Below, in pieces: positions 9,167 through 63,734 of a stretch of 64,000 nucleotides of DNA; the first letter of the stretch is position 1; every line of letters starts with the position of its first letter. Source of the stretch: Candidatus Saccharimonadota bacterium. GTDB taxonomy: Bacteria; Patescibacteriota; Saccharimonadia; Saccharimonadales; Saccharimonadaceae. Under the pieces are notes generated by a model. It was not told the DNA's origin and ran no database searches. It saw nothing but the letters and a program-made list of their open reading frames with translations. The position numbers were made by a program, and so were the translations under genes. The stretch spans positions 2,328 through 66,327 of the forward strand of contig JAEEUB010000003.1 of the NCBI GenBank assembly GCA_016286785.1. Reading direction: 5' to 3'.

Positions 9167-9290
9167 ATGCGTAACATTATATCACATATTTTATTGTTTT
9201 TGCGAGTAAAGAGAAAAAACGATTTCTTGAGGCATAAAAAGCTAGAATAATCACAACGCATTTTTATCCTGCTTGTGCTATAATAAAAAC

Positions 9291-12170
9291 ATGCGAGAGT
9301 GGAGAGTTAAGTTGTTATTCTTGGTGGCTTTTTTCTCTATTGTGCTGACTAGTCTAGCTGGCGGCAAAGCTTTTGCTGAGGGGGATATTAGTATCTCGAT
9401 TTCTAGCGACTCAGTTAATTTTAATCTCCTTCCAGGAGCATTTGGGGCGGAATCACAAACAATCACAGCTTCTACCGAGAACATTGCCGGTTACACAATT
9501 AGGATGCGCACTACCGGGCCAAGCAGTGCCTTAATTAACACCGTGGATAGTGAATATACTGTTCAGACCTTTGAACTACCAACCGGCTCGGAAAGCATTC
9601 CTGTTGGAGAACTTGGCTACGGATACGGCTATAGCATAGATGGTGGAGCAAACTATTTGCCAGTTTCGGAGCCATCCGTGCGCGGAACGACCATTTTTAA
9701 AACTACGGCGCCCGGTGATTATACTCACAATCTGACCTTTGGAGTAAAAGTCCCGACAGATGCAAAAACGGGAGTTTACACGAATACTTTCGTCATTGAG
9801 GCGGTGGTGAATCTGGAGCCCTGTGCCCCAGAAAGCATTTGTTATTATGGCAACGGCGACGACGGAACAGGCGAAATGGAAGACCAGCTTGTAGGCTCAA
9901 ATAGTAATCCTACCCTAATACCAAGCAATTTTTCCCGTCCCGGGTACGGATTTGCAGGCTGGAACACCGAGATTGATGGTACGGGAACTAGCTACGGTCC
10001 AAGTCAGGCGATTCAAGTCGGCGACTTAGCTACCGAAGGTCTCCAACTTTACGCAATGTGGGTTAAGTCGGCTGGAAATTTGCAAAATTGGCAAGGTTGC
10101 AATGCGATGAACGGGAGCGAAATTACGGCACTAACAGACACTCGCGACGGCAGCACTTACGCCATAGCAAAATATGCAGACGGCAAATGCTGGATGATGG
10201 AAAACTTACGCCTTGATCTATCGGACGAAGATGTGGAAATAACCAGCAGCAATACCAATAAGCCAACTAGTGACTTTATGGATGCCGCCAATGCGCATCC
10301 AGTATCATCAAACAACTTTTGTACGGCCACCAATGCCGATTGTACAGATAGAGTTCTTTATAATACCAACAACATGAATCGTAACCTAACGCCATCATAT
10401 AGCGCAAATGATTCCAGCAGCTCATGGTATTCTTATGGCGGTTATTATAATTATTATACCGCCACCGCAGGGAATAGCGGGTATGGTTTTAAGACAAGGG
10501 GCGCTCCTGCAAACGGCGACATCTGCCCAGCGGGGTGGAAACTGCCCACTGGCGCCAGTCGAAACGACGACCTTGCAAAGCTCGACATTGCCTATGGCGG
10601 CAACGGCGCTTCTCATGAAACAGACCCCGATGGCACCATTGGCTCAAAGAGATGGCGAGCCTTCCCACTAAACTTTATATATAGCGGTGAACAAAAAGGC
10701 TCAGCAGGTTACAATAGGGGTATTTCGACCGGTATGAATACTGCTACTAATTACAGTGCAACTTCATCTTACAATTTATGGCTAAGAGCTACGGCTATAA
10801 ACATCATAAACAATACTACCGGTAAAGCACGCGGACAAACCGTTCGTTGTATCGTAAAAGAACCCTATAGCGCTGTTGGTAATATCCATTATGAAAGTAA
10901 TGGTGGGGCGGGTACAATGACAGATGCAACAAACGTAAATTTTGCTACAGCAACCGCCGCAAATAATCAGTTTACTAGAGCTTATCACGAATTTATAGGT
11001 TGGAATACAAGCGCGAACGGCAAAGGCGTTACGGTTTTGGAGGGTAGCGCGGTAGATGGAGCAGCTATGCATCTAGATTTAACTGATGGCGACACTCTAA
11101 CGCTTTATGCAATATGGCAACCATATTATAGCGTGGTATATGATGGCAACGGCGCGGACGCCGGTTCGATGGCGAGCATTACGCATCAGCACGTGGTTGA
11201 TGGGACGAACTTAGTGTCAACGAATTATTCAAAAATTGGGTATGGCTTTGCTGGGTGGAGTACGGATGCTACCGCTGGAACAAAACTGCAAAACCATGAA
11301 ACCGTAACAATATACGGGCCAAATCAGTATGCAAAAGCCGATAGCACATTTCTGGCAAATGTAGACGCAAACAACCAGATTACGCTTTATGCGGTCTGGT
11401 TGCCATCGGATACGAATGATACCATGCAAACCTTTAGCGGTACTAGATGTAGTGCAATGAGCGTGGGCGAGGCGTTAGCGCTCACCGACGAACGCGATTC
11501 AAATACTTATACTGTAACTAAGCTTGCGGATGGGCACTGCTGGATGACAGAAAATCTCAGACTAAAACCATCTGCAGTTACATTTACGCCAGCTAACACC
11601 AACAATCCGACCACTGCATTTATTAATGATGCGCCATTATCGCAAGATAGCACAACGCTTTGTAATGACGATGATAGTGCGTGTATCGATACGATTAGAT
11701 TTAACGCAAACAATATTAATAGAAACCTAACCGCCTCCCCTAATTCTAATGACGATTCTAGCTCATGGTATGGCTACGGCGTAATGTATAGCTGGTACGC
11801 CGCTACAGCAGGACGAGGAGACTACGCGATGGCGAGCGGAAATGTGACCGGCGACATCTGTCCGGCCGGATGGCGTTTGCCAACTGGAGGCGAAAACGGC
11901 GAATTCGTGGATCTAGTAAACCTCATGACTGGTAATAATGATTCGGCAACCAATAATAATATGCTAAAATTCCCCAACAACTTCACCTATTCCGGTGATT
12001 ATAATCACAATATTAGCGGTGGTCGCGGTAGCTACGGAAGGTTCTGGAGCGCAACGCCTAACGGCCAGATTAACGCTTATCGTCTCGGCGTAGCAGCATC
12101 ACACGGCGTAACTCCAGCCAATTCGTGGAACAAGTGGGACGCATTTGCTGTAAGATGCATCGTGAAATAA
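9291..12170 (+). CDS. Secreted surface protein: WxL-like N-domain, InlB/Listeria-Bacteroides B-repeats and two FISUMP (Fib_succ_major) domains
   Basis: Signal peptide; Y.GNG...F...GW repeats; two copies of D.RD...Y...K.ADG.CWM.ENLRL...YGxxY...AT...GDICP.GW.LP...VRCIVK. Confidence 0.88.
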   Translation: MREWRVKLLFLVAFFSIVLTSLAGGKAFAEGDISISISSDSVNFNLLPGAFGAESQTITASTENIAGYTIRMRTTGPSSALINTVDSEYTVQTFELPTGSESIPVGELGYGYGYSIDGGANYLPVSEPSVRGTTIFKTTAPGDYTHNLTFGVKVPTDAKTGVYTNTFVIEAVVNLEPCAPESICYYGNGDDGTGEMEDQLVGSNSNPTLIPSNFSRPGYGFAGWNTEIDGTGTSYGPSQAIQVGDLATEGLQLYAMWVKSAGNLQNWQGCNAMNGSEITALTDTRDGSTYAIAKYADGKCWMMENLRLDLSDEDVEITSSNTNKPTSDFMDAANAHPVSSNNFCTATNADCTDRVLYNTNNMNRNLTPSYSANDSSSSWYSYGGYYNYYTATAGNSGYGFKTRGAPANGDICPAGWKLPTGASRNDDLAKLDIAYGGNGASHETDPDGTIGSKRWRAFPLNFIYSGEQKGSAGYNRGISTGMNTATNYSATSSYNLWLRATAINIINNTTGKARGQTVRCIVKEPYSAVGNIHYESNGGAGTMTDATNVNFATATAANNQFTRAYHEFIGWNTSANGKGVTVLEGSAVDGAAMHLDLTDGDTLTLYAIWQPYYSVVYDGNGADAGSMASITHQHVVDGTNLVSTNYSKIGYGFAGWSTDATAGTKLQNHETVTIYGPNQYAKADSTFLANVDANNQITLYAVWLPSDTNDTMQTFSGTRCSAMSVGEALALTDERDSNTYTVTKLADGHCWMTENLRLKPSAVTFTPANTNNPTTAFINDAPLSQDSTTLCNDDDSACIDTIRFNANNINRNLTASPNSNDDSSSWYGYGVMYSWYAATAGRGDYAMASGNVTGDICPAGWRLPTGGENGEFVDLVNLMTGNNDSATNNNMLKFPNNFTYSGDYNHNISGGRGSYGRFWSATPNGQINAYRLGVAASHGVTPANSWNKWDAFAVRCIVK

Positions 12171-12298: not shown

Positions 12299-14344
12299 AT
12301 GAAATTATTAAATGCAATTATTGTTTCAGTGGTTTCAATTTCTTTATTGACCCCTTTGCGCGTAAGCGCTTTGACTTGTGGTGCGAATGCAATTTGTCCT
12401 ACTTCAATTGAATACGTCGAAAAATCCGCAAATACCGAAGTATTGACCGACGCATCAATCAACAATGGTAAAATAAATATCGATATCAAGATGCTAGAAC
12501 TTGGCGACTACATAAAATATAAACTTATATTAGAGAACACATCAGAGGATGAATACAGGTTAGAAGACGCATCTTTTGATAATGACAAAGCTATCGTGTA
12601 TTCTGCTACATTTATTGATAATAAGGACACCATTGCTCCAGGTGACAGCAAGGAAGCAATTCTTACAATAGAGTATAAGAATTCAATCAAAGATGCCGAT
12701 TATGTGGACGATACCTATGTCGGCAATATTGATGCTACACTATTATTGACTAAAATTTCTGTACCAACTCCCGATGCATCTGACGCCCCATCAATTATTC
12801 CACCAAATTCAGGTGCTTCGAATGATTCGTCAACCGCTACATCGAATTCAGACGCTTCGAGTAGTTTTCCAATTGTTTTCATGACTTTTGCTATAATTGC
12901 TACCTCTATAATTTATGTTTTTTATCATAAATTTGGCCGAATTCGCCTAGTGATCATAGCTACTCTTTTTATTGGCGTCCTCGCTTCATTTGATGCATTT
13001 GCTACTGAAACTTGTGCAATTAAAATTGAATCGAAAGTTACAATACCAAGATACGAAGGACGCGAAATATATAAAGTTGTAACTGAAAAGATGATTAGCG
13101 ACGATGAGAGTAGCGAGTTTGTAGAACCGACTACTGGTGTGAATTTTCTGGAGCCATCCAGCAATACAAATGGGAAAGGTGTTTATGTTTTTTCACCAAC
13201 TAAAAATAATGATGTTCCGATTTACTACTATCGTGGCGCAGTTAACAATAATAATCTGATTTTTGCGGATTTTTGTTGGAAAGTATTTAGGACAACCGAA
13301 ACCGAAGGTCTCAAAATGATCTATAATGGTATCCCAACTAACGGTCAGTGTCTTGCCGATGGTAATGACACTATGGTAGCGACAGGTGTAAAATATAACT
13401 CCTCCGCAAGCAACCTTAGCTACTTTGGATATAGCTATGCCTCGAACGGCCACGCGCTTAGCTATATGACTAACTCTAAAATAGCCAATGGCATGGTGTT
13501 CGCAAATGATGTTTCGTATATTGACGGCCACTATACTTTAAGCGGCGATCAGTATATTAAGGATAGCAACTTTACGACTGATCGAGATTTAGTTTTGAAG
13601 ACTCATCATTATACTTGTTTAAAGGTCAGTGGCACAGAATGTGAAACGGTTAGATATGTTTATATGACTAGAAGCAGTGTCATGTTCTACGTTACGCTAA
13701 AAAATGGCGAAAAAATTGAAGATGCAATAAGAAATGACATTACCAATGAGGCTAATACTAATAAATCAATTGTTCGTGCGACTGTAGACAATTGGTATCG
13801 AGATAATATGACAGCATACACGGATAGTCTTGAGGATGCCGTATGGTGTAATGACCGTAGTTTATACGATGTTGGCGGATGGGATAAAAACAATGACGTA
13901 TTCGAAATCACGGGAGAGCAAGACGGGAAAATGATTTTTAATACCAATTATCGTGTTTTTATTTCCGGTAAACCCGAGATTGGTTGCGCAAGTAAAAATG
14001 ATGCATTTACGGTTAGCGAAGAAAACGGCAATGGTAATCTAGAATATCCAGTTGGCCTTATGACACTAGATGAAGCAGTTTTGGCCGGTTATAATTGGTA
14101 TAAATATGGTAGCATCTCCGACAATTATCTCAATAATGGCAAGGGTTGGTGGCTAATGTCTCCATCCCTTGTAAGTGCAAATAGTATTTATGTTGGTGTG
14201 GCCTACTCTGTAGTGGACAATGTTTCGCCAGTTTATGTTAGTAATGGGCTTGGTGGCGTACGGCCAACAATATCGCTTAAAGGACGGTTCAGAATCCTAA
14301 GTGGCGATGGTTCGGGTGATAAACCATTTGTTTTGGAGAATTAA
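12299..14344 (+). CDS. Surface protein with internal double TM hairpin and a C-terminal YYYRG...WCNDRS...PVGL domain
   Basis: Signal peptide, Ig-like region, PTP linker, PPNSG plus TM, second hydrophobic segment; the C-domain resembles families expanded in low-GC gut Bacilli (inference). Confidence 0.75.
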   Translation: MKLLNAIIVSVVSISLLTPLRVSALTCGANAICPTSIEYVEKSANTEVLTDASINNGKINIDIKMLELGDYIKYKLILENTSEDEYRLEDASFDNDKAIVYSATFIDNKDTIAPGDSKEAILTIEYKNSIKDADYVDDTYVGNIDATLLLTKISVPTPDASDAPSIIPPNSGASNDSSTATSNSDASSSFPIVFMTFAIIATSIIYVFYHKFGRIRLVIIATLFIGVLASFDAFATETCAIKIESKVTIPRYEGREIYKVVTEKMISDDESSEFVEPTTGVNFLEPSSNTNGKGVYVFSPTKNNDVPIYYYRGAVNNNNLIFADFCWKVFRTTETEGLKMIYNGIPTNGQCLADGNDTMVATGVKYNSSASNLSYFGYSYASNGHALSYMTNSKIANGMVFANDVSYIDGHYTLSGDQYIKDSNFTTDRDLVLKTHHYTCLKVSGTECETVRYVYMTRSSVMFYVTLKNGEKIEDAIRNDITNEANTNKSIVRATVDNWYRDNMTAYTDSLEDAVWCNDRSLYDVGGWDKNNDVFEITGEQDGKMIFNTNYRVFISGKPEIGCASKNDAFTVSEENGNGNLEYPVGLMTLDEAVLAGYNWYKYGSISDNYLNNGKGWWLMSPSLVSANSIYVGVAYSVVDNVSPVYVSNGLGGVRPTISLKGRFRILSGDGSGDKPFVLEN

Positions 14345-22897: not shown

Positions 22898-22972
22898 GGG
22901 GTCGTCGTTCAACGGATAGGACATATCCCCTCTAAGGATACAATGATGGTTCGATTCCATCCGGCCCTACCA
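22898..22972 (+). tRNA. tRNA-Arg(TCT) with atypical C33
   Basis: TATCC-CCTCTAA-GGATA arm, A20 Arg identity base, GATGG-TTCGATT-CCATC T-arm, CCA. Confidence 0.88.
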
Positions 22973-23081
22973 AATAAATAGAAGCCCTTTAGGGCTTATA
23001 TTTATTTGGTAAAGACAGAATCGAACCAGGTTCGCATCCCGAGCAAAGCAAGGGATTCCGCTTTCCATCCGGCCCTACCAA
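22955..23081. repeat. 19-bp direct repeat of the tRNA 3' end (22955-22973 and 23063-23081) enclosing a terminator hairpin and an inverted T-arm copy
   Basis: TTCCATCCGGCCCTACCAA occurs twice; GAATCGAACCA is complementary to the tRNA TGGTTCGATTC. Confidence 0.88.
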
Positions 23082-23175
23082 TATGTAATCTAATCGAACT
23101 TTTATAGTTCGATTTTTTCGTATTTAAAAAGATAAAACTATATTATAATAAGTTACATTAGTTTAGGGGTGTTAT

Positions 23176-23655
23176 ATGTCCAAAATCAGTAATGTATTAA
23201 CAATGCTCGAATATTTGAGTTCAGGTAGAAAACATAGTATTGCCGAATTATCAGAAAAACTAGAAGTTAGTCCTAGGATGATTCGAGTATATAAAGATGA
23301 AATAGAAAAAGCAGGTATTTATATAGATACGATTAAAGGCCCATATGGTGGCTATGTATTAAATCAAAATATAAATGTTCCAAAAAGATTTATAACACCA
23401 AATGCTATTAGTATTAAAAACAAAGAATTTTATAATATAGTTAATAAAGCAATCAAAGAAAAAAGAAAGTGTTATATAGAATATTATTCTAAAGATAAAA
23501 AAGAGATTTCTGCAAGAACTATTCATCCTTACGATTTAATATTACTTGGATCAGAATGGGGAGTCGCTGCATATTGTGAGAAAAAACAAGAGATAAGACA
23601 TTTCTATATAAATCGCATTAAAGAAATAAAATTATTAGAAAATTTTTATAACTGA
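23176..23655 (+). CDS. HTH-WYL transcriptional regulator (short, no WCX domain)
   Basis: wHTH AELSEKLEVSPRMIRVYKDEIEKAG...GPYGGY; WYL region IEYYS...RTIHPY...AAYCEKKQEIRHFYINRI. Confidence 0.9.
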   Translation: MSKISNVLTMLEYLSSGRKHSIAELSEKLEVSPRMIRVYKDEIEKAGIYIDTIKGPYGGYVLNQNINVPKRFITPNAISIKNKEFYNIVNKAIKEKRKCYIEYYSKDKKEISARTIHPYDLILLGSEWGVAAYCEKKQEIRHFYINRIKEIKLLENFYN

Positions 23656-23711
23656 CATATATATTTCCTCTTCTTTTGTTAATATGCAATTAGCAAGGGA
23701 GAGGTTTTATA

Positions 23712-24743
23712 ATGATTAAACATACACATACTGAACCTACAGAATTAAATTTTTCTAAACTAGAAGAAAAAATAATGCAGGTTAATGATCCATGTTTAGG
23801 TAAATATAATGATATAAGAGAAATGCTATATGAATTAACCATAGAAAATAGACCAACATTAATTATGGCAACTGGAGGTTCTAAAGTAATAGCATATTAT
23901 TTACAACTAATTATTGAAAGATTAGGATTAACTGGAATAATTTGTGAGGTAATTGAGCCAAGAGATTACTTTTATAAAGCAAATAGAGATATTTTTTCTA
24001 ATTTAATTGTCATTTCTGCTAGTGGAAATACTAATGGAATTAGCGAAGCATTATTAGATTTTAAGGGAAATAAATATTTAATTACTGAAAATGTAAAAGA
24101 ATCTAATTATCAAGTGGTATCTTGGGGTAATGAACTTTATGATAGAGAAAAGAGTTTTATATCATTAGCTACTAGTTTGGGGCCAATATCATTGCTTCTT
24201 GATTCTACTACTTCACTAAATCTAGAATTAGGTTCAAACGAAATAAAAAGAATAAATGATAAAATAAAAGAATTATTATCAAGAAGTAAAGAAAAAATAA
24301 ATAAATTAAATGTAGTTTTTAAAGATACTCCATTAATTCAAATAATGAGTGGATATGAAACAAAAACTTCTGCGAGTGTTCTAGAGTCTAATTTAACTGA
24401 AGTCGGATTAGTACCAGCAGTAATTCATGATAAAGGTTCATATTGTCATGGAAGAAGTAATTTGTTATTCCAATATCCAAATAGTAGAATAATTTATCTA
24501 TCACATGGTTTAAAAGAATTAGATGATTTATTAATTGATTCTATTAATGGTGAATATTCAAATATATCTGTTTTTAATACAAATGATTTAAAAGATAATA
24601 TATTTTGGAAAGAATATTATTTGATTTTGCAAATGTATTTCTTATCTAAAAAAATTGCTGAAGACAAGAATATAGATTTAACACAACCAGAATATAATCC
24701 AACTTTGGTAAAGAAATTATATAAATTTAAAGGAGAAATGTAA
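23712..24743 (+). CDS. Two-SIS-domain sugar-phosphate isomerase-like protein (GlmS isomerase / PGI-PMI-like)
   Basis: ATGGS and SASGNT phosphate-binding loops; second domain LESNLTE...GSYCHGR resembles GlmS LEGALKLKE...HGP. Confidence 0.75.
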   Translation: MIKHTHTEPTELNFSKLEEKIMQVNDPCLGKYNDIREMLYELTIENRPTLIMATGGSKVIAYYLQLIIERLGLTGIICEVIEPRDYFYKANRDIFSNLIVISASGNTNGISEALLDFKGNKYLITENVKESNYQVVSWGNELYDREKSFISLATSLGPISLLLDSTTSLNLELGSNEIKRINDKIKELLSRSKEKINKLNVVFKDTPLIQIMSGYETKTSASVLESNLTEVGLVPAVIHDKGSYCHGRSNLLFQYPNSRIIYLSHGLKELDDLLIDSINGEYSNISVFNTNDLKDNIFWKEYYLILQMYFLSKKIAEDKNIDLTQPEYNPTLVKKLYKFKGEM

Positions 24744-24744
24744 T

Positions 24745-25356
24745 ATGGAAAATTTAACTTATATAACTGGTAATTATGGTAAGTATGTTTCAGTAAAAGA
24801 AAAATTTGAAAATGCTGGGATTACTATTGATTATTTTAAATGTGATTTAGATGAGCCAGATGTTAATGATATTGAATTTATATCTGAAGAAAAAGCAAGG
24901 CAAGCATACGAAAAATTAGGTAGTCCTGTATTTGTTGCTGACTCAGGTTTCTATATAGAACATTATCCTAATAATCCAGGATATCCAGGTGCCTTTGTAA
25001 AAAGAAGTGGTGTTAGTTCTAATGTAAGTGAACTTTTAGAAACAATGAAAGATGTAACAGATAGAAGTTGCTATTTTCTAGATTGTCTTACTTTCTTTGA
25101 TGGAAATGAATATTATCAATTCTTTGGAATAAGTAAAGGTTCTTTATTAAATGAATTACGAGGACATGAAAATAAACGAGCAAAATCAAATCTATGGTAT
25201 GTGTTTGTACCAGATAATTGTATTAAAACACTAGCAGAAATGACTGATGAGGAAAGAAATAATAGACCTGATAATAGAACAAGTGTCACAGATGAATTTA
25301 TCAAGTGGTATAAACTAAATTACAAAAATGCAAAAAAATTATCTAAAAAATGTTGA
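24745..25356 (+). CDS. Ham1/RdgB (ITPase)-family non-canonical NTP pyrophosphatase, divergent
   Basis: ITGNYGK, SEEKA and VADSGFYI (catalytic Asp) present; canonical FGYDP and SHR motifs replaced. Confidence 0.85.
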   Translation: MENLTYITGNYGKYVSVKEKFENAGITIDYFKCDLDEPDVNDIEFISEEKARQAYEKLGSPVFVADSGFYIEHYPNNPGYPGAFVKRSGVSSNVSELLETMKDVTDRSCYFLDCLTFFDGNEYYQFFGISKGSLLNELRGHENKRAKSNLWYVFVPDNCIKTLAEMTDEERNNRPDNRTSVTDEFIKWYKLNYKNAKKLSKKC

Positions 25357-25595
25357 AATAAATAATACCTATGGCAAAATGTATTTAGTGATTAGTCGTT
25401 TATCAACTATTCCTAAGGTTTCGGATATACTATTTGTCCCTACCATACTAAAATAATCCCTCCAGGGATTATTTATTATTATGGCGAAGTCAGCCCTCTT
25501 TCGTCCGGCCTTATTTCCTGTACCCTCCGGTCTAAGACTTATAAAATCTTATATTAATTTGCTTATTTATTTTAGCTTATGCTATAATTAAAACC

Positions 25596-48243: not shown

Positions 48244-49569
48244 ATGAATAAAATTTATAAGTCAGTGCTTAGCGTATCGGCCACAGCAGTTTTGCTTGCA
48301 GCTACGCTTACTCCGATGATAGTAAACGCTCGTGGCGATTCAGCGAATGGCCGCAAGATCTATACTATCGAACAAATCAACAATGGTGACCTTGGTGACA
48401 CCATTACATTTAACTCAATTTCTAATGGTAAAATTGGAGACGAAGAAGATTTCGTGGGCGCAAGAATGGCTGGCGACACATCTAGTGTCTTGCAAAATGC
48501 CTCTATCGATGTAAAAGATGGTGATATCATCACGATTCGTCTATATGTTCACAACAATAACCCTAAAGGCGAAAAGGCTATCGCAGAAGGCGTAAAGGCG
48601 TCCTTCTTGGTTCCATCGGGCATTGCTAAATCTCATACGATTATTGGCTATCTCGATTCTTCGAACGCTACCCCTAATCGTTACTGGGATGAAGTGATTC
48701 TAAACTCTAGCGAAGATATTTACCTTAATTATGTTAAGGGCTCCGCAAAATTCACTAACAGCAAAATGGGTACGGTAGCGCTTCCTGACGAGATAGTTGC
48801 CTCTGGTGCTACACTCGGCTATGATAAGTTAGATGGTAAAATCCCAGGCTGTTATCAGTATGATGGCTTTGTTACCATTGACGTTAAAGTTCATAACTAT
48901 GTGGCGGCTAAGGTTTCTAAGCAGGTTCGCATTAAGGGTACCAATACTTGGAGTGAATCTGTAAACGCCAAAGTTGGCGATGAGGTTGAATTCCAAATTG
49001 AATTCACTAACCTTTTATCTGAAACCGTAAGGAACGTTGCAATCAAAGATGTTCTGCCTGCCAACATTGAATATGTCAATGGTTCTACCTATCTATATAA
49101 TGCTGGCCACCCAAGTGGTGTATTACTAGAAGGCGATCACCTAACCGAAAATGGTATCATAATCGGCGATTATGGTTCAAACCGTAATGGTATCGTACGC
49201 TTCACCGGCAAAGTTGTAGATAAATCTTTGGCTTGCGGTAATAACCAATTGGTTAACTGGGCAAACGCTACAATATCTAGCTCAAGCCTACAAAACGTTG
49301 TCTACAAAGACGACGCATCTGTAATGGTAAAAAAGGATGACGAGACTTGTAAAAAGACTCCAGATCCTGATCCAACGCCCGATCCAGAGCCAACTCCGGA
49401 TCCTGATGGTCCAACTCCAACCCCAACCCCAGACGATCCTATCGATCCGGGCACTCCAACCGTAATCGTGAGTACCGGTCCCGAGACTATCGTAACTGGT
49501 GCGATTGGTGCTGGTTCTGTAGTGACCACCCTTGGCTACTACATTGCTAGTCGTAAAAAGTTAATGTAA
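48244..49569 (+). CDS. DUF11-type Ig-domain surface protein with PTPD linker and sortase-like tail
   Basis: Signal peptide; GDEVEFQIEF.N...NVAIKDVLP; (PD/PT)n linker; VSTGP plus TM plus RKK. Confidence 0.82.
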   Translation: MNKIYKSVLSVSATAVLLAATLTPMIVNARGDSANGRKIYTIEQINNGDLGDTITFNSISNGKIGDEEDFVGARMAGDTSSVLQNASIDVKDGDIITIRLYVHNNNPKGEKAIAEGVKASFLVPSGIAKSHTIIGYLDSSNATPNRYWDEVILNSSEDIYLNYVKGSAKFTNSKMGTVALPDEIVASGATLGYDKLDGKIPGCYQYDGFVTIDVKVHNYVAAKVSKQVRIKGTNTWSESVNAKVGDEVEFQIEFTNLLSETVRNVAIKDVLPANIEYVNGSTYLYNAGHPSGVLLEGDHLTENGIIIGDYGSNRNGIVRFTGKVVDKSLACGNNQLVNWANATISSSSLQNVVYKDDASVMVKKDDETCKKTPDPDPTPDPEPTPDPDGPTPTPTPDDPIDPGTPTVIVSTGPETIVTGAIGAGSVVTTLGYYIASRKKLM

Positions 49570-49743: not shown

Positions 49744-50844
49744 ATGGATCCAACACAAAAAAGTCCTATTAGTAGTAATAACCCGAGCGAAACAAACCCG
49801 GGCGGTATTCGCTTGCCATCAAATGATAAAGGTTACTCGACCGCCCCTAGTACTCAAAGCCAAAATATCCAAACCGGTTTCAATATCCCAAGTAGTCAAA
49901 GCATTTCAAACAATCCTGTCATCCCAAACAGCCCCAGTAGCCCGAACACAAACACTCTAAGTAACAATCCGCCATCTCAAAACACAAATTATAATGAGAT
50001 GCTTCCGCTCATGCAAGCAAACGCTAATTATATAATGCCACAATCGGTACCAGCGGGCATGGGTTCTAATGGTGCCATCCCTGGCAACAACAAAACTAAA
50101 AAATCAGGGGTTTGGAACGTTTGGCTAATTGTTTTAGTTGCTATAGTGTTGTGTTTAAGTATAGTTCTTATAATATGGTTGGCTCTTTCTGGCAGTGATG
50201 GCGGGGGCGAATCTTTCAGCAATACAACTAATTCATTCAATTCATATGTAAATTATGTAGTTTATGGGCAAGAAAACAACGGGGCAATCAACATTGACGA
50301 TGTGGCGGGTGCGCAGCCATACTTCGAAAGCATCAGTGGCGACGACCTCGAGCAGTATCTACTTAAGGCAAAGGAAAAATACACCGATTTTTCAAACCTC
50401 TACAGTAACGGAGATGGCAATGTTCTAGGAATTGAATCCATGGATATATATTTTTATGATTATGCCAAAAATCATACAATATCCATGGGCAGATACCAAG
50501 ACCTATACGAAAAAAATGGCGTGGAGGGTATTGATAATTTTATTAAAGAAAGATTCCCGGAGTCAAGTTCGGACGTAATTTATAATTCATATATTAACGA
50601 CGAAAAACGATTTGCAAATCTTTGCGCAAAAATATTTGCCACAGCCGAAAGCGCCGGCTGCAGGGGAGAAGACGGGGCCTTCACTGAAGGCTGTTACAAT
50701 ATGTCGGAGCAAGAGTCGGAAGATCTAAGCTCCGTCATGAGTAAATTAGATAACGATGAAAACATTTTATACAACAACGCAATAAGTGTGATTCTTGCGT
50801 TGTATAAGGAACTATACGGTGTTAACTCAGAGGAGGGAGTATGA
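49744..50844 (+). CDS. Hypothetical bitopic membrane protein, N/P/S/Q-rich N-terminus
   Basis: Low-complexity N-terminus, one TM, helical C-domain; overlaps the next gene start. Confidence 0.8.
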   Translation: MDPTQKSPISSNNPSETNPGGIRLPSNDKGYSTAPSTQSQNIQTGFNIPSSQSISNNPVIPNSPSSPNTNTLSNNPPSQNTNYNEMLPLMQANANYIMPQSVPAGMGSNGAIPGNNKTKKSGVWNVWLIVLVAIVLCLSIVLIIWLALSGSDGGGESFSNTTNSFNSYVNYVVYGQENNGAINIDDVAGAQPYFESISGDDLEQYLLKAKEKYTDFSNLYSNGDGNVLGIESMDIYFYDYAKNHTISMGRYQDLYEKNGVEGIDNFIKERFPESSSDVIYNSYINDEKRFANLCAKIFATAESAGCRGEDGAFTEGCYNMSEQESEDLSSVMSKLDNDENILYNNAISVILALYKELYGVNSEEGV

Positions 50845-53800
50845 TGAAGGTTGTTAAGAGTCTATCTATATGGATATTTGGAGTACTTATGTTTGGCCTT
50901 TTCGCAAACGTAAACGTTCACGCCGCCGACACTTCCTCCATCATGAAAAAATGGGTCTTTACCGGATATGCGGCATGCGCCCGGGACGCTATAAATACTC
51001 CATTATCCAATAAAGAAAACCAGAGCGGACTTGTATCTGAAAGTGTTTTCGATAAAAGAGCTGGGTCAGTAAATCTGCCATCATATGGTTTTGGCACAAA
51101 TGATAATAACAGCTCCCAAATAGACTGTAGAGGCTTATTTCTTGGGGAAGGAGCACTCTCTAAATCTGGGGTATTAGATTATGCCGGTATCACAAAAAGC
51201 ATAGACTGGAGCAAAACCAGCGATGCGCATTCGTTCCTCACGGAGAAAGTGGGCTATAAGTTCGATAATGACACTAGTAACGCACAGTTCTTCACTATAT
51301 CGGCAGCAAGACAAATATGCGATACTAATTATCTTTTTGGTGAAAAAACCACTTGCAGTACAAAAGATATTTCCTCGGCAAGAATCACTAGGAGTGACAA
51401 CGGTAAATATACGATTGATAAAACTCAATTTGGCAAAGATATAAAAATCAAGCTCGACGATAATGGCATGAAAGTAGAAGTGGTAAAGCCATGGGGTGCG
51501 ATTTGGGATTCGGGTTCGCCCGTGCACGAAGCATATATTGAATACGATTCTGATATCACAAAGTTCGCGAACAAAACAGAAATGGCTCTTCGATCTTTGG
51601 CGCCATCATATATACAAGGATATGATGGAGGCGATACTAAAGTAACGATTAGTTTTAGTAGCGGAATAATAAATCAGGGCAATATCGGTACCTACAGTTT
51701 CATAAAACACAGCTCAGACAGCATCGCTAATTCAATAAAACTATTATCTGGCCCCGATAATCTATATCTTACTAATGATGAAAGATATAATCTATATACC
51801 TATTATATACAAAAATCTGCTAACACCATAGTGTGCGAAAATGACGGTACAGTTGGTGATAATGAATACTTGGTAAAACTAAAAAGCGGTAATGACTTCA
51901 AGAACTGTAGGATTAGCTTCAACGGGGCTTCCCCCTCCTCAATCAATGTAAACATTGTAAATAGTGACCGTCCGTTCCCAGCGATACAAACCGTTACTCT
52001 AGACAATATAATCAATTGGCTAAACAATGTTGACACTTCCAAGCTCGAGGACGTTGATTCTATAGAAGATCGGGACCCAATTTCTGGACAAACAAACTCT
52101 ATAAGAGAATTATGCGAAAAGGGGAATTTAAATGGCCAGGGTTGGATTCTGTGTCCTAGCTTAGAAAATCTCACATATACTGCTAACGATATGGATCGGT
52201 TTGTGCAAAAATTTCTAAACGTGGACACAACGTTATACGATTATGACAGCGCCGCATATAAAGTCTGGCAAGTTACGCGCAGTTTTGCGAATATACTGAT
52301 GATTATATTTCTTCTCTTTATCCTTTTTTCGCAAATCACCGGTTTTGGTATAGATAATTATGGTATCAAAAAAATGCTGCCCCGAATTATTATTTCGGCA
52401 ATTTTAATAAACCTTAGTTTTGTTATTTGTACAATAGTAATAGATTTATCTAATATACTAGGCGTAGGGTTGAGGGACTTGTTTGGTGTCATCGGCCAAG
52501 GCCTGGAGGTTGGACAGGCTGCAGAGGGTGGCGATTATATTGCTACGACAGTGGCCGTGCTCATGGCTGCTATTAGCGGCGCTGGCATGATAGCTCCTAC
52601 GGTTGTGTCGATAGGACTGGTCACGGCGTCTTTCCCTATGATTGTTGTTATGGTGGTCTTGGCTGTCCTTGGGGCAGTATCGGCCCTCTTCATAATCTTT
52701 GCAATGCTTTCCGGGAGAATGGTTTTAATTATCCTGTGTCTATCAGTAGCTCCGGTAGCATTTGCGCTCTACGTATTACCCAATACTCAAGGCTTATTTA
52801 AAAAGTGGCTGAGCGCCCTTAAAGCGGTCGTAGTTCTATTCCCAATTTGTGGAGCGTTAGGTGGAATTAGCTCCATAATTAAAGGCATTTCTAGCACTAC
52901 GGACGACATCGTAATGAAAATTATTGGTATTCTTGCGCCGTTCGTAATGTTTTTCCTACTGCCCTCGCTATTGAGAAGCGCGCTATCATCTATAGGTCAG
53001 ATAGGCTCAGTATTCCAGTCAATTGGCGAAAAAGTATCTAGCGGAATAAAAGAAGCTCGAAGGGGAGTTCAAAGTTCCGAGATATACAGAGATGCAACAA
53101 TGCAGACATCTTATCTGAGAGCAAAAGATCTGAAAGAAAGACTTGAAAAAAGAGCTGCGGATTTAGCTAAAGAGGACAAAAGTCTTAGCTTCCATGAGCA
53201 GGCCCTATTAAGGGACGCCTCTTCGAAAGTCAATTTTAGGGAAAGCACGAGCCTAAGGACATACGAAGATTTGTTTAGTGGTCAAGATGCTAAAACCGTC
53301 GGCGCATCCTTCGAGAGTGCAATAAGGTCTAATGACGCCGAGCGCGCCAGAGCAGCCCTTCGTAATCTAATCAAGACTGATCCTAAAAGAGCCTATGAAA
53401 CATTGCGAGATGCAAATTGGGGAAAGATGAACAGCTCCTTCAGGCAAAAACTAGTTGCTGATATGGGCGCAAGCGGCGTTGATTTATTGTCCGGTTACGC
53501 CGCCTATGAGGGTAACGACAAGATTCCTGGTCCAAAGGATTTTAAAAGTTATCTCACTAAAGCGTACGCTACACGCCTTACGGATAAGGGCGATAAAGCC
53601 GCAATGAGCCTCAGCAAAGATGATTTGACATTTATCTTAGATCCAGATAGTGGCATAGATCTGGACAACCAGCAATTGGGTAAAGTACTATTGACGGGCT
53701 CATCGTCGCATAGTACCGAAAACGACTATCAGAGCCTTGTGAATAGTACAATTAAGGAGAAAAAGATTAAGGCCGAGGAATTAGGGTTCGATAATGCAGA

Positions 53801-54029
53801 CCAGCTTCGCTTCTTAACGCCGGGCATGATTAAGGCGATGTTGGATGGAGGATCGTATGGAGAAGGTAAGACTCTACAAGACGTGCAGCAAGCGATTAAG
53901 GGGGAATTAGGGGAAGTATTCGATAAAGCTGACAGAAGAACACTGGCACAAATGCACCGAGACACTTTGACGATACTCGAAGGGGGAAACGTTAGCGAAA
54001 TTGCAAGTAAATGGAGCTCATCAAGTTAA
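50841..54029 (+). CDS. VirB6/TrbL-like type IV secretion membrane protein
   Basis: Signal plus Cys-containing ectodomain; GWILCP...W...R.FAN....F...I.SQITG.GIDNYGIKKMLPR...N.SF core; multiple TMs; helical cytoplasmic tail. Confidence 0.75.
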   Translation: MMKVVKSLSIWIFGVLMFGLFANVNVHAADTSSIMKKWVFTGYAACARDAINTPLSNKENQSGLVSESVFDKRAGSVNLPSYGFGTNDNNSSQIDCRGLFLGEGALSKSGVLDYAGITKSIDWSKTSDAHSFLTEKVGYKFDNDTSNAQFFTISAARQICDTNYLFGEKTTCSTKDISSARITRSDNGKYTIDKTQFGKDIKIKLDDNGMKVEVVKPWGAIWDSGSPVHEAYIEYDSDITKFANKTEMALRSLAPSYIQGYDGGDTKVTISFSSGIINQGNIGTYSFIKHSSDSIANSIKLLSGPDNLYLTNDERYNLYTYYIQKSANTIVCENDGTVGDNEYLVKLKSGNDFKNCRISFNGASPSSINVNIVNSDRPFPAIQTVTLDNIINWLNNVDTSKLEDVDSIEDRDPISGQTNSIRELCEKGNLNGQGWILCPSLENLTYTANDMDRFVQKFLNVDTTLYDYDSAAYKVWQVTRSFANILMIIFLLFILFSQITGFGIDNYGIKKMLPRIIISAILINLSFVICTIVIDLSNILGVGLRDLFGVIGQGLEVGQAAEGGDYIATTVAVLMAAISGAGMIAPTVVSIGLVTASFPMIVVMVVLAVLGAVSALFIIFAMLSGRMVLIILCLSVAPVAFALYVLPNTQGLFKKWLSALKAVVVLFPICGALGGISSIIKGISSTTDDIVMKIIGILAPFVMFFLLPSLLRSALSSIGQIGSVFQSIGEKVSSGIKEARRGVQSSEIYRDATMQTSYLRAKDLKERLEKRAADLAKEDKSLSFHEQALLRDASSKVNFRESTSLRTYEDLFSGQDAKTVGASFESAIRSNDAERARAALRNLIKTDPKRAYETLRDANWGKMNSSFRQKLVADMGASGVDLLSGYAAYEGNDKIPGPKDFKSYLTKAYATRLTDKGDKAAMSLSKDDLTFILDPDSGIDLDNQQLGKVLLTGSSSHSTENDYQSLVNSTIKEKKIKAEELGFDNADQLRFLTPGMIKAMLDGGSYGEGKTLQDVQQAIKGELGEVFDKADRRTLAQMHRDTLTILEGGNVSEIASKWSSSS

Positions 54030-60205: not shown

Positions 60206-60709
60206 ATGGGCGAAAGTGAAAAAAAACCAAACAAAAAGGCACTTCTTATTGTTCTCGCTCTCCTCATCATACTTGCTATCGGATTGATTGCCGTAATCAT
60301 TATTAATGCCTCAAAAGGCGGTCTGGATGGCGACCAAGCGGATTGTGACGGAGGCCTAATGGAAACCTCGGAGCTACTAAGCTGCATAGAAGAAAGGTAT
60401 CAAGACGACGCAGGTGGTAAAATGGCTGCCTACGACAAAGCAATTTTAAGGGCCAAAGACGCAAAAGACGAACCCGAACTTGTTATACTGATTGGAAGGA
60501 AATCTAAGGCGCTTGTAAACTCTGGCGATTGCCTCAGTGCCCTTGCTCTATATAAAGAAAATATCGATGGCTTGAGCCAAGAAGCTCTAGGTGCTTTCTA
60601 TATGAATGCTGTAGCTACTAGTCATGAGTGCGGTAACGAAGAACTAGTAAAACAATATCTAAATCTTGCAAACAATATTAAAGGAGATGGCGATGCGAGT
60701 GGCTTTTAG
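60206..60709 (+). CDS. Membrane-anchored helical (TPR-like) hypothetical protein
   Basis: N-terminal TM plus helical repeats. Confidence 0.7.
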   Translation: MGESEKKPNKKALLIVLALLIILAIGLIAVIIINASKGGLDGDQADCDGGLMETSELLSCIEERYQDDAGGKMAAYDKAILRAKDAKDEPELVILIGRKSKALVNSGDCLSALALYKENIDGLSQEALGAFYMNAVATSHECGNEELVKQYLNLANNIKGDGDASGF

Positions 60710-63700
60710 ACCATTATTAATTATTTGCCTTACCATTGCGATTGCTTGCGCAATAAATACTGACACATTAGCTTTTACGGGTGGCGGTTCCGGCTCCGAT
60801 GGCTGGGACGCAAGCTGTTGGTCTACAAGAGCGTATACTGGGCTTTGTGACGGTGGCGCATCCGGTGGCGGAGCAAGTTGGCATATCTATAAAACTAGCG
60901 GTAGTGGTGCATATTCTGGACCGGAGGACGATCCGTTACGCAATGATGATAATGCCGCTGCAATTTTAACTGAACCTGGCGGCGTAGGGGGCATAAAGGA
61001 TAATTGCAAGTCATCGCTAACAAACTATTACATAGCATACGGATGGGATAGTACATATTATGGATGGTACCCCAATACTCATTTTGGGCCAGCTAAGAGA
61101 GGAGATGATGATAAAATCTCGGATGCAGAATATAATAATTACAATGCTCTAGGTTACGACCAGATAGTGTCCGCCATCGCTAATAATACCCTGTCATCAG
61201 GGCAAAGGATCACGGCATGGGCGGCCAATCACATTTATGAACTTGAAAATAACGGTAACAGCATTCCAAGTTATGCTGGTTACTTTTGTGCAGCACTCCA
61301 AGCCACCCTAACAGGTGTAGCTGTAGATAAGAACGGCAATAGTGTCCCTGGGCTTTCTGATGTCACAAGTACAGTCCCATCTGGCAAAAGTGCAAAAGTC
61401 ACACGTCGCGAAATGGCGGACTGGACCTTCCTTGGCTGGAGGACCAATAAAACTAGCGGTTCTCCATCTGGCGGAGCCGACTACACTGTAGATAACTTAA
61501 AATCCAATCAGACCGTATACGCCGTATACGAATATAAATCATTTCAAGCCGAAGCTAAATCGGGATCCAAAAATACTACCGGCTACACAAACGATGACAA
61601 TACAGCAAAGCGAGTCTTTACATGTAATAACCTAACCGACGGTTGTAATACAACATTCACCCTCAATATGAAAAGAATAACCGGTTCCGGCGAAAGCAAA
61701 TATAGTGTCCTGGAAAAAAAGGTCAGCTCCAGTAAGTTTGAGGCCAAAGAATCGAATGAATCTTTTGATCCGACGGAAAAGAATGGCACAGCCAAATTAA
61801 TAAAGGAATATACGGTTGCGATCAAGCCGGGGCAGAGTGCCTGTTATCGACTCACCTTTCACCCATATGGGGATTACGGCGCAAATACTACTAAGAGTGT
61901 TACGATTTGCGCATACGCAATCAGTAACCTGGGCTCCAGTATCACTATGATGGTTAAGAAAAATAATAGTGCCAAGTTTAATCATGCACCAGACACTAAA
62001 CCTCTATATGTTAAGCCAACGGATACGGTCTACCTGCAAGGTTCTTATACGCCCAAAGCACAGTACGCGGCCAATCTTTCTCCAAAACGCCTAGTTATTA
62101 ATAAAACTACGGATGAAACCAGTGGCACAATAATCAGTAGGTTTAATAAACTAATAGAGCCAGACTGGAAGAACGCATTCTCTATCCGGCTAAAAAACGC
62201 CAATAATGAAGTCATTGTCGGTGGTGATACCAAAAAGAGAAATGGTGACTTCTCAAATTACACCATTGATAGGAATAGTAAAATTACCAAATATTACGTT
62301 GGCCAAACGCTAACGGCTGTAGTGCAAACAAATATCAGCAAGGATGATTGCAAGACTACACCAAAATCCGCAGATATAACATACGTGGACGGTACTGGAT
62401 TTGTTGTTAATATTAATAATTCTGTCGTTTCTGACAGTGATTATATAAAGGTACCATACAACTTCTCAAACAGAACAGAAATTACCGATAACCCAGACGA
62501 AAAAATAGTCTACGCCGGTCAGAACGCAACGATTAAATATTCTACTATAGTTGGGACTAGGAAGAATAACACTATTGGGGGTAATGCATACGCAACAATC
62601 GTGAGAGATGCAAAATACAAAATGCGTATGACATCAGATGGTGGAGAGAGCTGGACATATAGCGAAGAGAAAAACGGCACATTGCACGATAATGATAACT
62701 TAGAAAGCGAAACAATATCACGAGAGGCAAGCCTTATTATTCCAGATGTTCCTGCGGGGTCTAAAATTTGCTTTCAGTCATTAGTGTATCCAAAAGACAG
62801 TGGTAACGATACTAATTTAAACTCAAAATACTACGACGAGAGCAATCTGAATAACTGGGCTTTTTCGGAAGAAAAATGTTTTGTAGTAGCCAAAAGACCA
62901 TCACTCCAAGTATGGGGCGGCAATATCTACTCTAGCGGAGAAATAAATACAAGCACCGCAGCTAAAACTATTGATGGTAACCTCCATACATTTGGCTCCT
63001 GGGGAGAACTTGGCATTATCTCTGGTGGAGCAGTTACGGGTATGGCTAGCGGCGCAGGTTACGGTTACTCTGGGCCAAACTCCGCCGCCAACCCTGGTGG
63101 CGCAAAAGGCAACAATTTCTGCGAGGCTAGTCCTCTATCCTTTGCTAACAATGATTGTCAAAATAAAAAAACAGGCTCTCTAGACATCTCCTTTGGCGGA
63201 CTTTCTAACGATTCGGATTTCATCACTCAAGCTCTCGCTAACGAAAATGCAAATATTACAAGGTACTCCGATCCTTCTGAATTTAGTGGCGAAATTGACT
63301 CTGGTACGGTATTTATTAGCAATCCAGACGGAGACATTAATATTGATAAAGACATAAAATACACCGGAAGCTATACGTCTCTAGATTCTATACCTAAAGT
63401 CGTAATCTATGCTAAGAATGTTAATATTTTCTGCAAAGTATCGCGCATAGACGCTCTTATTATTGCAAAAGAAACAGTAGATACTTGTAGCAATGGCGAA
63501 GATATAAATAGTCGTAATCGTTCCAATCAACTAATAATTAATGGTGCCATCATTGCAAAAAAACTAAAAGCAGACCGCACCTATGGCGCTGGAACTGGAA
63601 ATAATTCCATTGTTCCAGCCGAAATCATCAACTTTGATCCTTCACTTTATTTGTGGGGAGGAAAAGAAGTCAATGTTGACGCAAACACCTCCCTTAAGAA

Positions 63701-63734
63701 CTCGTATGTCCGCGAGCTGTCCCCAAGATATTAG
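60693..63734 (+). CDS. Large secreted adhesin-like protein (Saccharibacteria-type KRP..QVWGG C-domain)
   Basis: Signal peptide, Cys pairs, one B-repeat-like unit, C-terminal VVIYAKNVNI...LIINGAIIAKKL..DRTYG...PAEII.FDPS; AAGGAG SD. Confidence 0.8.
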   Translation: MRVAFRPLLIICLTIAIACAINTDTLAFTGGGSGSDGWDASCWSTRAYTGLCDGGASGGGASWHIYKTSGSGAYSGPEDDPLRNDDNAAAILTEPGGVGGIKDNCKSSLTNYYIAYGWDSTYYGWYPNTHFGPAKRGDDDKISDAEYNNYNALGYDQIVSAIANNTLSSGQRITAWAANHIYELENNGNSIPSYAGYFCAALQATLTGVAVDKNGNSVPGLSDVTSTVPSGKSAKVTRREMADWTFLGWRTNKTSGSPSGGADYTVDNLKSNQTVYAVYEYKSFQAEAKSGSKNTTGYTNDDNTAKRVFTCNNLTDGCNTTFTLNMKRITGSGESKYSVLEKKVSSSKFEAKESNESFDPTEKNGTAKLIKEYTVAIKPGQSACYRLTFHPYGDYGANTTKSVTICAYAISNLGSSITMMVKKNNSAKFNHAPDTKPLYVKPTDTVYLQGSYTPKAQYAANLSPKRLVINKTTDETSGTIISRFNKLIEPDWKNAFSIRLKNANNEVIVGGDTKKRNGDFSNYTIDRNSKITKYYVGQTLTAVVQTNISKDDCKTTPKSADITYVDGTGFVVNINNSVVSDSDYIKVPYNFSNRTEITDNPDEKIVYAGQNATIKYSTIVGTRKNNTIGGNAYATIVRDAKYKMRMTSDGGESWTYSEEKNGTLHDNDNLESETISREASLIIPDVPAGSKICFQSLVYPKDSGNDTNLNSKYYDESNLNNWAFSEEKCFVVAKRPSLQVWGGNIYSSGEINTSTAAKTIDGNLHTFGSWGELGIISGGAVTGMASGAGYGYSGPNSAANPGGAKGNNFCEASPLSFANNDCQNKKTGSLDISFGGLSNDSDFITQALANENANITRYSDPSEFSGEIDSGTVFISNPDGDINIDKDIKYTGSYTSLDSIPKVVIYAKNVNIFCKVSRIDALIIAKETVDTCSNGEDINSRNRSNQLIINGAIIAKKLKADRTYGAGTGNNSIVPAEIINFDPSLYLWGGKEVNVDANTSLKNSYVRELSPRY

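Follow-up and report, generated by a model that had tools for sequence, protein, structure and literature searches.

Kongming, an antiphage system, consists of KomA, an adenosine deaminase, KomB, a HAM1-like sensor, and KomC, a SIR2 effector. In the defensive HAM1 clade, a histidine invariably replaces the catalytic aspartate and a SIR2 partner is always present (bioRxiv 10.1101/2024.12.20.629578). For two-SIS enzymes of the GlmS-isomerase, FrlB, FraB and NagB-II class, the criterion is a catalytic Glu (general base) and a His (general acid) exactly 16 residues apart (PMC10285752). Here, a stretch of 64,000 nucleotides from a Candidatus Saccharimonadota genome (assembly GCA_016286785.1, contig JAEEUB010000003.1, positions 2,328 to 66,327 of the forward strand; hereafter the window) was analysed for a cassette of three genes inserted at a tRNA-Arg gene, which encode a WYL regulator, a two-SIS-domain enzyme and a Ham1-family nucleoside triphosphate (NTP) pyrophosphatase. 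The cassette is real and was not found described in the literature and libraries searched, yet it is built of known families.

Like Kongming, the cassette is a horizontally mobile module that points to a nucleotide-centred biology, and in both the HAM1-family protein is closely linked to a partner, at times by fusion. KomB is, however, catalytically dead by the Asp to His replacement, whereas the cassette Ham1 keeps Asp66 and the catalytic residues. The partner is an SIS enzyme of the GlmS/FrlB type, no deaminase is present, the base-pocket motifs retained by KomB are remodelled, and expression of the cassette is apparently controlled by the WYL regulator together with an RNA hairpin. A first-pass annotation of the window had proposed a nucleotide-based defence or damage module and had drawn the analogy with Kongming. 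The mobility and conservation of the trio and the apparent re-specification of Ham1 agree with that proposal, but the analogy does not hold, and the data do not decide between defence and damage. We tentatively favour an integrase-less, horizontally mobile accessory cassette for which biological conflict, for example anti-phage defence, is the leading candidate role.

Insertion at the tRNA-Arg gene

The three open reading frames (ORFs) are all co-oriented in the ORF list of the window, and start 200 nt downstream of a tRNA-Arg(TCT) gene (22898-22972, + strand) identified by ARAGORN and Rfam. They encode the short WYL regulator (23176-23655, +, 159 aa), the two-SIS-domain enzyme of the GlmS-isomerase/FrlB/NagB-II class (23712-24743, +, 343 aa) and the Ham1 protein (24745-25356, +, 203 aa). 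The SIS stop codon ends at 24743 and the Ham1 ATG lies at 24745, so that the two genes are indeed 1 nt apart, as first annotated. Over 23-25 kb the GC content falls to a trough of 25-28% (0.255-0.275) from about 42% elsewhere in the window, and the cassette as such has 25.8% GC compared to 42.2% for the remaining window.

Two sister-strain contigs (L090 and L087), which encode the identical flanking methyltransferase, had window position 23080 joined directly to 25438, with flanks that were 99-99.9% identical. An independent bovine-gut run (X3) displayed the same joint, 23072 to 25438 with 8 nt shared. Because of these empty-site joints the islet is placed at 23081-25437 (+, 2,357 bp) between two copies of CCCTACCA, and donor homology and GC content are further evidence for it. 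It contains the three genes and nothing more, with no integrase or recombinase of its own. The 8-bp repeat CCCTACCA is the end of the tRNA acceptor arm and bounds the insertion on both sides. On the left, the junction core (23073-23080) makes up the last 8 nt of an exact second copy of the tRNA 3′-end 19-mer (23063-23081, +; repeat family D1). On the right, the core (25438-25445) belongs to an att-like end, ...TATTTGTCCCTACCA (25425-25445, +), and has 8 nt in common with the left junction. The 19-mer duplicate was also present in L090 and L087, and since the empty site has it too, it represents an older integration scar. Three features that mark a tRNA-linked islet were found: the insertion adjoins the 3′ end of a tRNA, direct repeats bound it, and relatives have the site unoccupied. 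The earlier description of three co-oriented, AT-rich genes at a tRNA with att-like ends is borne out by the ORFs, the GC trough, the empty site and the repeat alike.

Another sister-strain contig (L086) harboured a different element directly after the same tRNA-Arg(TCT), at the equivalent of window ~22973, with a 530-aa serine recombinase encoded at L086:8802-10394 on the minus strand. In this lineage of Saccharibacteria, the tRNA-Arg(TCT) site is a hotspot of integration. At the same site in a sister strain (L092:1771-2934) the SIS gene was missing, and a Ham1 allele of 82.6% nucleotide identity came immediately after the WYL gene and its conserved spacer. The arrangement could be a WYL-Ham1 variant that exists in nature, or else a chimera of the assembly. 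A tandem cassette or circular junction, considered from a hairpin at the left junction, was rejected, as the piece, short chance matches aside, was confined to the sister strain L092.

Host range and mobility

The SIS gene was detected in 78 species-level genomes, nearly all of which were metagenome-assembled genomes (MAGs) of uncultured gut Bacilli, 'Tenericutes' or Erysipelotrichaceae. The closest cassettes, in MAGs of gut Bacilli, were 94-96% identical at the nucleotide level over window ~23113/23144-25445, across phyla. Cassette and flanks have the same GC content in the Bacilli carriers (27.5% each), in contrast to the difference seen in the Saccharibacteria host. On the basis of the nucleotide identity and the donor-like GC content, the cassette is a recent cross-phylum transfer from a pool of low-GC gut Bacilli to a bacterium of the candidate phyla radiation (CPR), Candidatus Saccharibacteria. 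The flanking genes of the host were themselves present in gut and bovine-gut metagenomes, and for two housekeeping proteins of the window the cluster members with at least 90% identity carry the name Candidatus Saccharibacteria.

In five donor contexts the homology ended at the same nucleotide, ...TTTGTCCGTACCA, the counterpart of CCCTACCA in the window, and the donor right ends read GTCCGTACCA or GTCAGTACCA, the latter being that of L008. A co-oriented tRNA or tmRNA gene was located at most ~2.5 kb upstream in approximately 17 of 60 loci. Some Bacilli genomes have the cassette as cargo within a larger element that contains serine recombinase and Mob_Pre genes, and it is only in such carriers that recombinases accompany it. 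One such carrier element, at L004:380-5424 and also seen in L005-L007, L022 and L024, encodes a large serine recombinase, a Mob_Pre relaxase and a DUF5677-Peptidase_C15 protein, and in L004-L007 a holin and a GH25 lysin come next. In gut Bacilli, WYL-SIS cassettes also recurred in the vicinity of the housekeeping genes hpf-secA / prfB (L109-L119, L020, L030), which suggests a second preferred insertion region.

Contigs from metatranscriptomes covered cassette-like sequence at a low and patchy level only. In contigs of the runs X25 and X32 the end of Ham1 (window 25347) was joined to a mid WYL-like sequence (23354) with 13 nt (TTGACATATTTAG) between them. This joint appears to be an alternative arrangement of a related cassette.

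A conserved trio with a WYL-SIS core

The WYL, SIS and Ham1 genes were found in the same order and spacing in approximately 60 of the 78 loci, and in 46 all three ORFs were full-length. About 10 of the 78 copies appear disrupted, with split or truncated ORFs as read off the ORF table. The genes neighbouring the 78 loci amounted to 592 ORFs that fell into 464 clusters, and no cluster was seen at more than 6 loci. The flanks are almost never shared, and the trio is an autonomous unit. The WYL-SIS-Ham1 co-occurrence proposed from the window alone was accordingly recovered by the neighbourhood search, and natural SIS/Ham1 fusions add to it.

The family architecture does not place the SIS-Ham1 pairing at the centre of the module. 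In a subfamily of ~35% identity, represented by 80 metagenome loci, a homologous WYL gene was located directly upstream of the SIS gene in 60 loci, whereas Ham1 was present in none of the 80 and no third gene was conserved. Approximately 10 loci of the near family also lacked Ham1, and across the SIS loci of near family and subfamily no partner other than WYL was conserved. Since the subfamily has WYL-SIS without Ham1, WYL-SIS is the conserved core and Ham1 is an add-on of one branch. Among the cassettes, the WYL regulator was the best conserved protein, with a mean pairwise identity of 0.77 compared to 0.58 for SIS. Alleles have been shuffled within the cassette: L013 and L017 are 92% identical in SIS and 97% in WYL but 62% in Ham1, whereas L014 and L052 are 82% identical in Ham1 and 53% in SIS.

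With 194 representatives among 1.84 billion, the SIS clade is a small one, and its relatives comprise PfkB-kinase-SIS fusions of ~640-720 aa, Ham1-SIS fusions and forms with an unknown N-terminal domain of ~110 aa. The Ham1-SIS fusions are two distant relatives, P0430 and P0466, and P0430 keeps the family motifs KSNLWKVFIP and HDKYDYCHGRS. The ~110-aa N-terminal domain, without a Pfam match, was seen in place of Ham1 or PfkB in P0414 and P0439 (~415-425 aa) and in L109-L123.

The WYL regulator and the spacer hairpin

The WYL protein matched the Pfam families WYL (3.9e-17, residues 86-152) and HTH_11 (7e-9, residues 8-60) and the PADLOC WYL model (4e-30), and its WYL domain matched the structures of PafBC, PafC, CapW and BrxR. 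The solved relatives are 291-320 aa long, and their alignment to the 159-aa protein is confined to the WYL domain. It resembles regulators of defence as well as of DNA damage (PMC11662680, PMC9122601). The likeness to BrxR, CapW, PafBC and DriD lies in the N-terminal winged helix-turn-helix, the WYL domain and the location of the gene directly upstream of its presumed targets. The cassette regulator differs from these four in its small size and the lack of a WCX domain, and in a conserved hairpin, resembling a terminator and pairing with the Shine-Dalgarno (SD) sequence of SIS, that adds a layer of control. To our knowledge, though no search was aimed at it, such a terminator/anti-SD hairpin has not been described for the BrxR, CapW, PafBC or DriD systems.

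The spacer between WYL and SIS is 56 nt long and was 91% conserved among cassettes whose SIS proteins are only ~52% identical. The box TGACAtATATATT (23653-23665, +), in which the TGA is the WYL stop codon, showed no or almost no variation among 36 distinct cassette variants, occurs as one exact copy in the window and is a putative operator. A related box, GACgAAATATT, was found in the distant subfamily. A second TGACAnATATATT box upstream of WYL, as a further operator, was sought and not found; the window held 17 near-matches where 10.8 were expected, and the one exact copy.

The box is followed by the terminator-like hairpin (23667-23704) and UUUU at 23705-23708 (together 23667-23708, +), the 3′ arm of which is the SD of the SIS gene, GGGAGAGG (23697-23704). 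The RNA folded at -19.5 kcal/mol with a z-score of -4.6, and 0 of 200 shuffled sequences were as stable. The same anti-SD/SD pairing was present in 33-34 of the 36 distinct variants, several of them with compensated stems. The subfamily of ~35% identity displayed the same hairpin design with other bases in the inner stem (median z -4.5 over 44 variants). These results were obtained by folding each sequence separately; RNAalifold on a MAFFT alignment was uninformative (-0.81 kcal/mol), as indels misregister the 3′ arm. The hairpin is thus predicted to occlude the SIS ribosome-binding site, and by sequestering the SD in this conserved manner it would be expected to keep SIS and Ham1 off in read-through transcripts.

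The SIS enzyme

The middle protein alone had no Pfam match. A profile of its family (44 sequences) gave a match of 5.5e-7 to the solved SIS structure 2aml, and PF01380 was matched by 14 of these members. An AlphaFold model (mean predicted local distance difference test 86, predicted template modelling score 0.89) was compared to known structures by Foldseek, and the top matches were all two-SIS-domain proteins with probability 1.0 and template modelling scores of 0.60-0.71: 2aml, 2cb0, 3eua, FrlB 8glr and the GlmS isomerase domain 1moq. By type, the matched proteins were Lmo0035, an archaeal glucosamine-6-phosphate deaminase, FrlB, the GlmS isomerase domain and NagB-II. An identity as SIR2/KomC was also considered for the middle protein and is ruled out by the two-SIS fold, and no SIR2 match was found in Pfam.

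E230 and H246 were invariant in the family, lie at the 16-residue spacing, and aligned with E233/H249 of E. coli FrlB (initiator Met counted) and E488/H504 of GlmS (E489/H505 with the initiator Met). S57, S102, S104 and T107 correspond to S303, S347, S349 and T352 of GlmS (S304, S348, S350 and T353 with the initiator Met). Across the family, the sugar-phosphate and catalytic residues were invariant or nearly so. From its residues the protein looks like an active two-SIS enzyme of the GlmS/FrlB type with a full catalytic set.

The fold, the Glu/His spacing and the Ser/Ser/Ser/Thr set are common to the cassette enzyme, FrlB, FraB, the GlmS isomerase domain and NagB-II, and the distant cassette relatives fused to PfkB kinases recall the kinase-deglycase pairs FrlB/FrlD and FraB/FraD. 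The cassette SIS is, however, only ~13-18% identical in sequence to the known enzymes of this class. Unlike the FrlB and FraB operons, its branch has neither transporter nor kinase, and its partners are Ham1 and WYL in a mobile and strain-variable unit.

The Ham1 pyrophosphatase

The third protein matched Pfam Ham1p_like (PF01725) at 1.4e-20 and scored below the NCBIfam equivalog cut-offs of NF011396 (93.6 versus 203 bits) and TIGR00042 (79.8 versus 145.35 bits). It shares the fold family, the T/N/K motif, the Glu, the Lys and the Asp-Ser-Gly with the housecleaning inosine triphosphate pyrophosphatases (ITPases) RdgB, Mj0226, PH1917 and human ITPA. T8xN10xxK13, K50 and D66-S-G were all kept, and N10, K13, E37, K50 and D66 were invariant in 25 family members. 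It differs from the housecleaning enzymes in the base pocket. SNLWY(VFVP) aligned with FGYDP of the archaeal ITPase PH1917, and SHR reads DNR, also in comparison with Mj0226. Throughout the family a conserved S148-x-L150-W151-x-x-F154-x-P156 (SNLW-VF-P), longer by an insertion of 4 residues, takes the place of FGYDP, and the family does not keep the Arg of SHR. The cassette Ham1 also differs from them in being accessory and mobile rather than a core gene.

Ham1 therefore looks active but re-specified, with catalytic residues intact and a remodelled base pocket. The altered motifs had been read from the single sequence and proved to be conserved in the family, and the possibility that the protein is a plain ITP/XTPase (for inosine or xanthosine triphosphate) is argued against by the cut-offs and by the family-wide replacement of the base-pocket motifs. 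The Shine-Dalgarno sequence of Ham1 lies within the last SIS codons, from which Ham1 is predicted to be translationally coupled to SIS.

The residues that characterise KomB were not found in the cassette Ham1. The window sequence 'vfvaDSG' aligned with 'vfveHTG' of KomB, which places Asp66 opposite His65, and Ham1 was nearer to archaeal ITPases (3.8e-17) than to KomB (8zsg, 8.7e-9). With neither the Asp to His replacement nor a SIR2 partner, and no adenosine deaminase or other signal-making enzyme among the three genes of the islet, the analogy with Kongming was abandoned.

Function of the cassette

The reading that we place first, with reservation, is that of a mobile cassette for conflict, silent under normal conditions, in which the two enzymes would clear a non-canonical nucleotide or a sugar-phosphate precursor. 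In the resting state the hairpin, and probably also the WYL protein, would keep SIS and Ham1 off. The WYL domain would sense a nucleic-acid or nucleotide cue, as in CapW, BrxR, PafBC and DriD, and switch the two enzymes on. Ham1 might then hydrolyse a purine-like (deoxy)nucleoside triphosphate, (d)NTP, other than ITP or XTP, to the monophosphate, and SIS might isomerise, deaminate or deglycate an amino- or keto-sugar phosphate. Together they would strip nucleotide or sugar-phosphate precursors needed by an invader, with growth arrest as the outcome if the substrates were the cell's own. Ham1 and PfkB, the latter fused to SIS in other branches, would both yield a monophosphate and may be interchangeable substrate-supplying modules for the core SIS.

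A function in conflict is favoured because of the mobility, the presence or absence at the strain level, the allele shuffling, the variable add-ons, the apparently disrupted copies and the double lock on expression. The retained catalytic residues, the coupling and fusions of SIS and Ham1, the likeness of the WYL protein to defence and damage regulators and some candidate defence neighbours speak in the same direction.

Several observations weigh against it. Sensor domains and classical effectors (nuclease, NADase, pore and the like) are lacking in both enzymes, which resemble ordinary small-molecule enzymes and would fit housecleaning equally well. The regulator ends 7 residues past its WYL match and has no C-terminal WCX dimerisation domain. 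PADLOC recognised neither SIS nor Ham1 and matched WYL models only. IMG/VR, INPHARED phages (searched with Ham1) and PLSDB plasmids (searched with SIS) yielded no copy. Among 290 neighbour clusters, scanned without a control set for defence-island enrichment, candidate defence hits (HerA, PDC-S01/02/05/07/13, MADS-like and type I S) were scattered, the scanned neighbours were mostly housekeeping genes, and proximity to defence islands is weak at best. A PHROGs search likewise matched the WYL protein and neither SIS nor Ham1. The statement that no described system has this SIS and Ham1 pairing has held, as none was found in PADLOC, in other libraries or in paper searches.

A wider proposal, which we regard as doubtful, is that WYL-SIS with interchangeable Ham1, PfkB or unknown-domain add-ons constitutes an unrecognised family of systems against phages and other mobile genetic elements, whose effectors are small-molecule enzymes held off by the hairpin and the WYL sensor. 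Once induced, these effectors would destroy a modified nucleotide or sugar-phosphate precursor specific to the phage, or deplete the cell's own, and the integrase-less unit would have spread even into the CPR.

The strongest alternative, only slightly less probable than the conflict function that we favour, is the clean-up of damaged or xenobiotic metabolites. The WYL protein would sense DNA damage or an abnormal nucleotide, and Ham1 would clear from the pool a purine-like (d)NTP that is damaged or foreign, whether ring-opened, glycated, alkylated or an antimetabolite. A FrlB-like SIS would deglycate or isomerise the matching abnormal sugar-phosphate or Amadori-type adduct. The benefit would be greatest in salvage-dependent hosts with reduced genomes, such as Saccharibacteria and low-GC gut Bacilli. 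Both enzymes appear catalytically intact and come from housecleaning or metabolic families, the PfkB-SIS fusions mirror the kinase-deglycase logic of FrlD/FrlB (PMC10285752), and the neighbourhoods are mostly housekeeping. PafBC, DriD and SiwR are WYL regulators that control DNA-damage regulons. The hosts are salvage-dependent gut bacteria, here Saccharibacteria. Housecleaning genes are, however, usually vertical and uniform, whereas the cassette is strain-variable, island-borne, allele-shuffled and often apparently disrupted, and a double expression lock would be unusual for a benign sanitiser. We also know of no SIS enzyme that acts on a nucleotide, which we count against this explanation. 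The conflict function is ranked above clean-up on these grounds, and in both models the biochemical steps are ones that we infer.

It is improbable that the cassette is an accessory module for the catabolism or salvage of Amadori compounds or amino sugars, with SIS as deglycase or deaminase, a substrate-responsive WYL regulator and Ham1 as a loose passenger. The SIS fold and catalytic residues match FrlB, FraB and NagB-II, relatives carry PfkB fusions, the habitat is the gut, and WYL-SIS occurs without Ham1. Both this branch and the WYL-SIS subfamily, though, lack an accompanying transporter or kinase, and Ham1 is coupled to SIS and elsewhere fused to it, which argues that it is no passenger. 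Operons for amino sugars and Amadori compounds are usually regulated by GntR or RpiR proteins and not by WYL proteins, a further point against this explanation.

Signalling in the manner of Kongming, in which Ham1 would sense deoxyinosine triphosphate or a related base-modified nucleotide and activate its partner effector, is very improbable. It draws on the weak similarity of Ham1 to KomB and on the tight coupling or fusion of Ham1 and partner, as for KomB and KomC. It is opposed by Asp66 where defensive HAM1s have His, a two-SIS partner in place of SIR2, the missing adenosine deaminase, the closer similarity to archaeal ITPases and the alteration of nucleotide-pocket motifs that KomB retains. 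Equally far-fetched is an ordinary housekeeping ITPase next to an unrelated sugar isomerase by chance, for although Ham1 belongs to the Pfam Ham1 family and its relatives are named XTP/dITP diphosphohydrolase in the sources, the order and spacing are kept in ~60 of 78 genomes in unrelated contexts, fusions exist, the protein falls below the equivalog cut-offs with its base-pocket motifs replaced, and sister strains lack the insertion.

If the cassette is a conflict system, as we tentatively prefer, a sugar-phosphate isomerase or deglycase would be the first effector of its class in bacterial immunity, and Ham1, active and re-specified, would differ from the dead HAM1 that serves Kongming as a sensor. 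If clean-up is the true function, the cassette would point to an unrecognised class of abnormal nucleotides or phosphosugars that salvage-dependent gut bacteria must remove. Either way, the locus offers a clean and dated case of recent gene flow from Bacilli to Saccharibacteria of the CPR, an integrase-less mobile unit that is well defined and ends like a tRNA acceptor, and a minimal WYL regulator paired with a terminator/anti-SD RNA element of deep conservation.

Other genes near the cassettes and in the window

A homologue of the 5-hydroxymethyldeoxyuridine (5-hmdU) DNA kinase (Pfam HMUDK_hel, 5.9e-107) was located at most 5 kb from the cassette in 4 of the 78 loci. These were L051, with L051:11039-11977 and L051:11981-13027 both on the minus strand, and also L046, L033 and L038. 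A radical-SAM/SPASM gene adjoined the kinase homologue in two of the four loci. Because the kinase gene is rare, its co-location with the cassette may not be due to chance.

Elsewhere in the window, large ORFs of 681-1,062 aa (9273-12170, 12299-14344, 50841-54029 and 60666-63734) had no or marginal NCBIfam matches. One of them carries a FISUMP domain, and a 441-aa ORF at 48244-49569 contains a DUF11 repeat. The large ORFs and the DUF11 ORF presumably encode surface proteins, as are common in Saccharibacteria.

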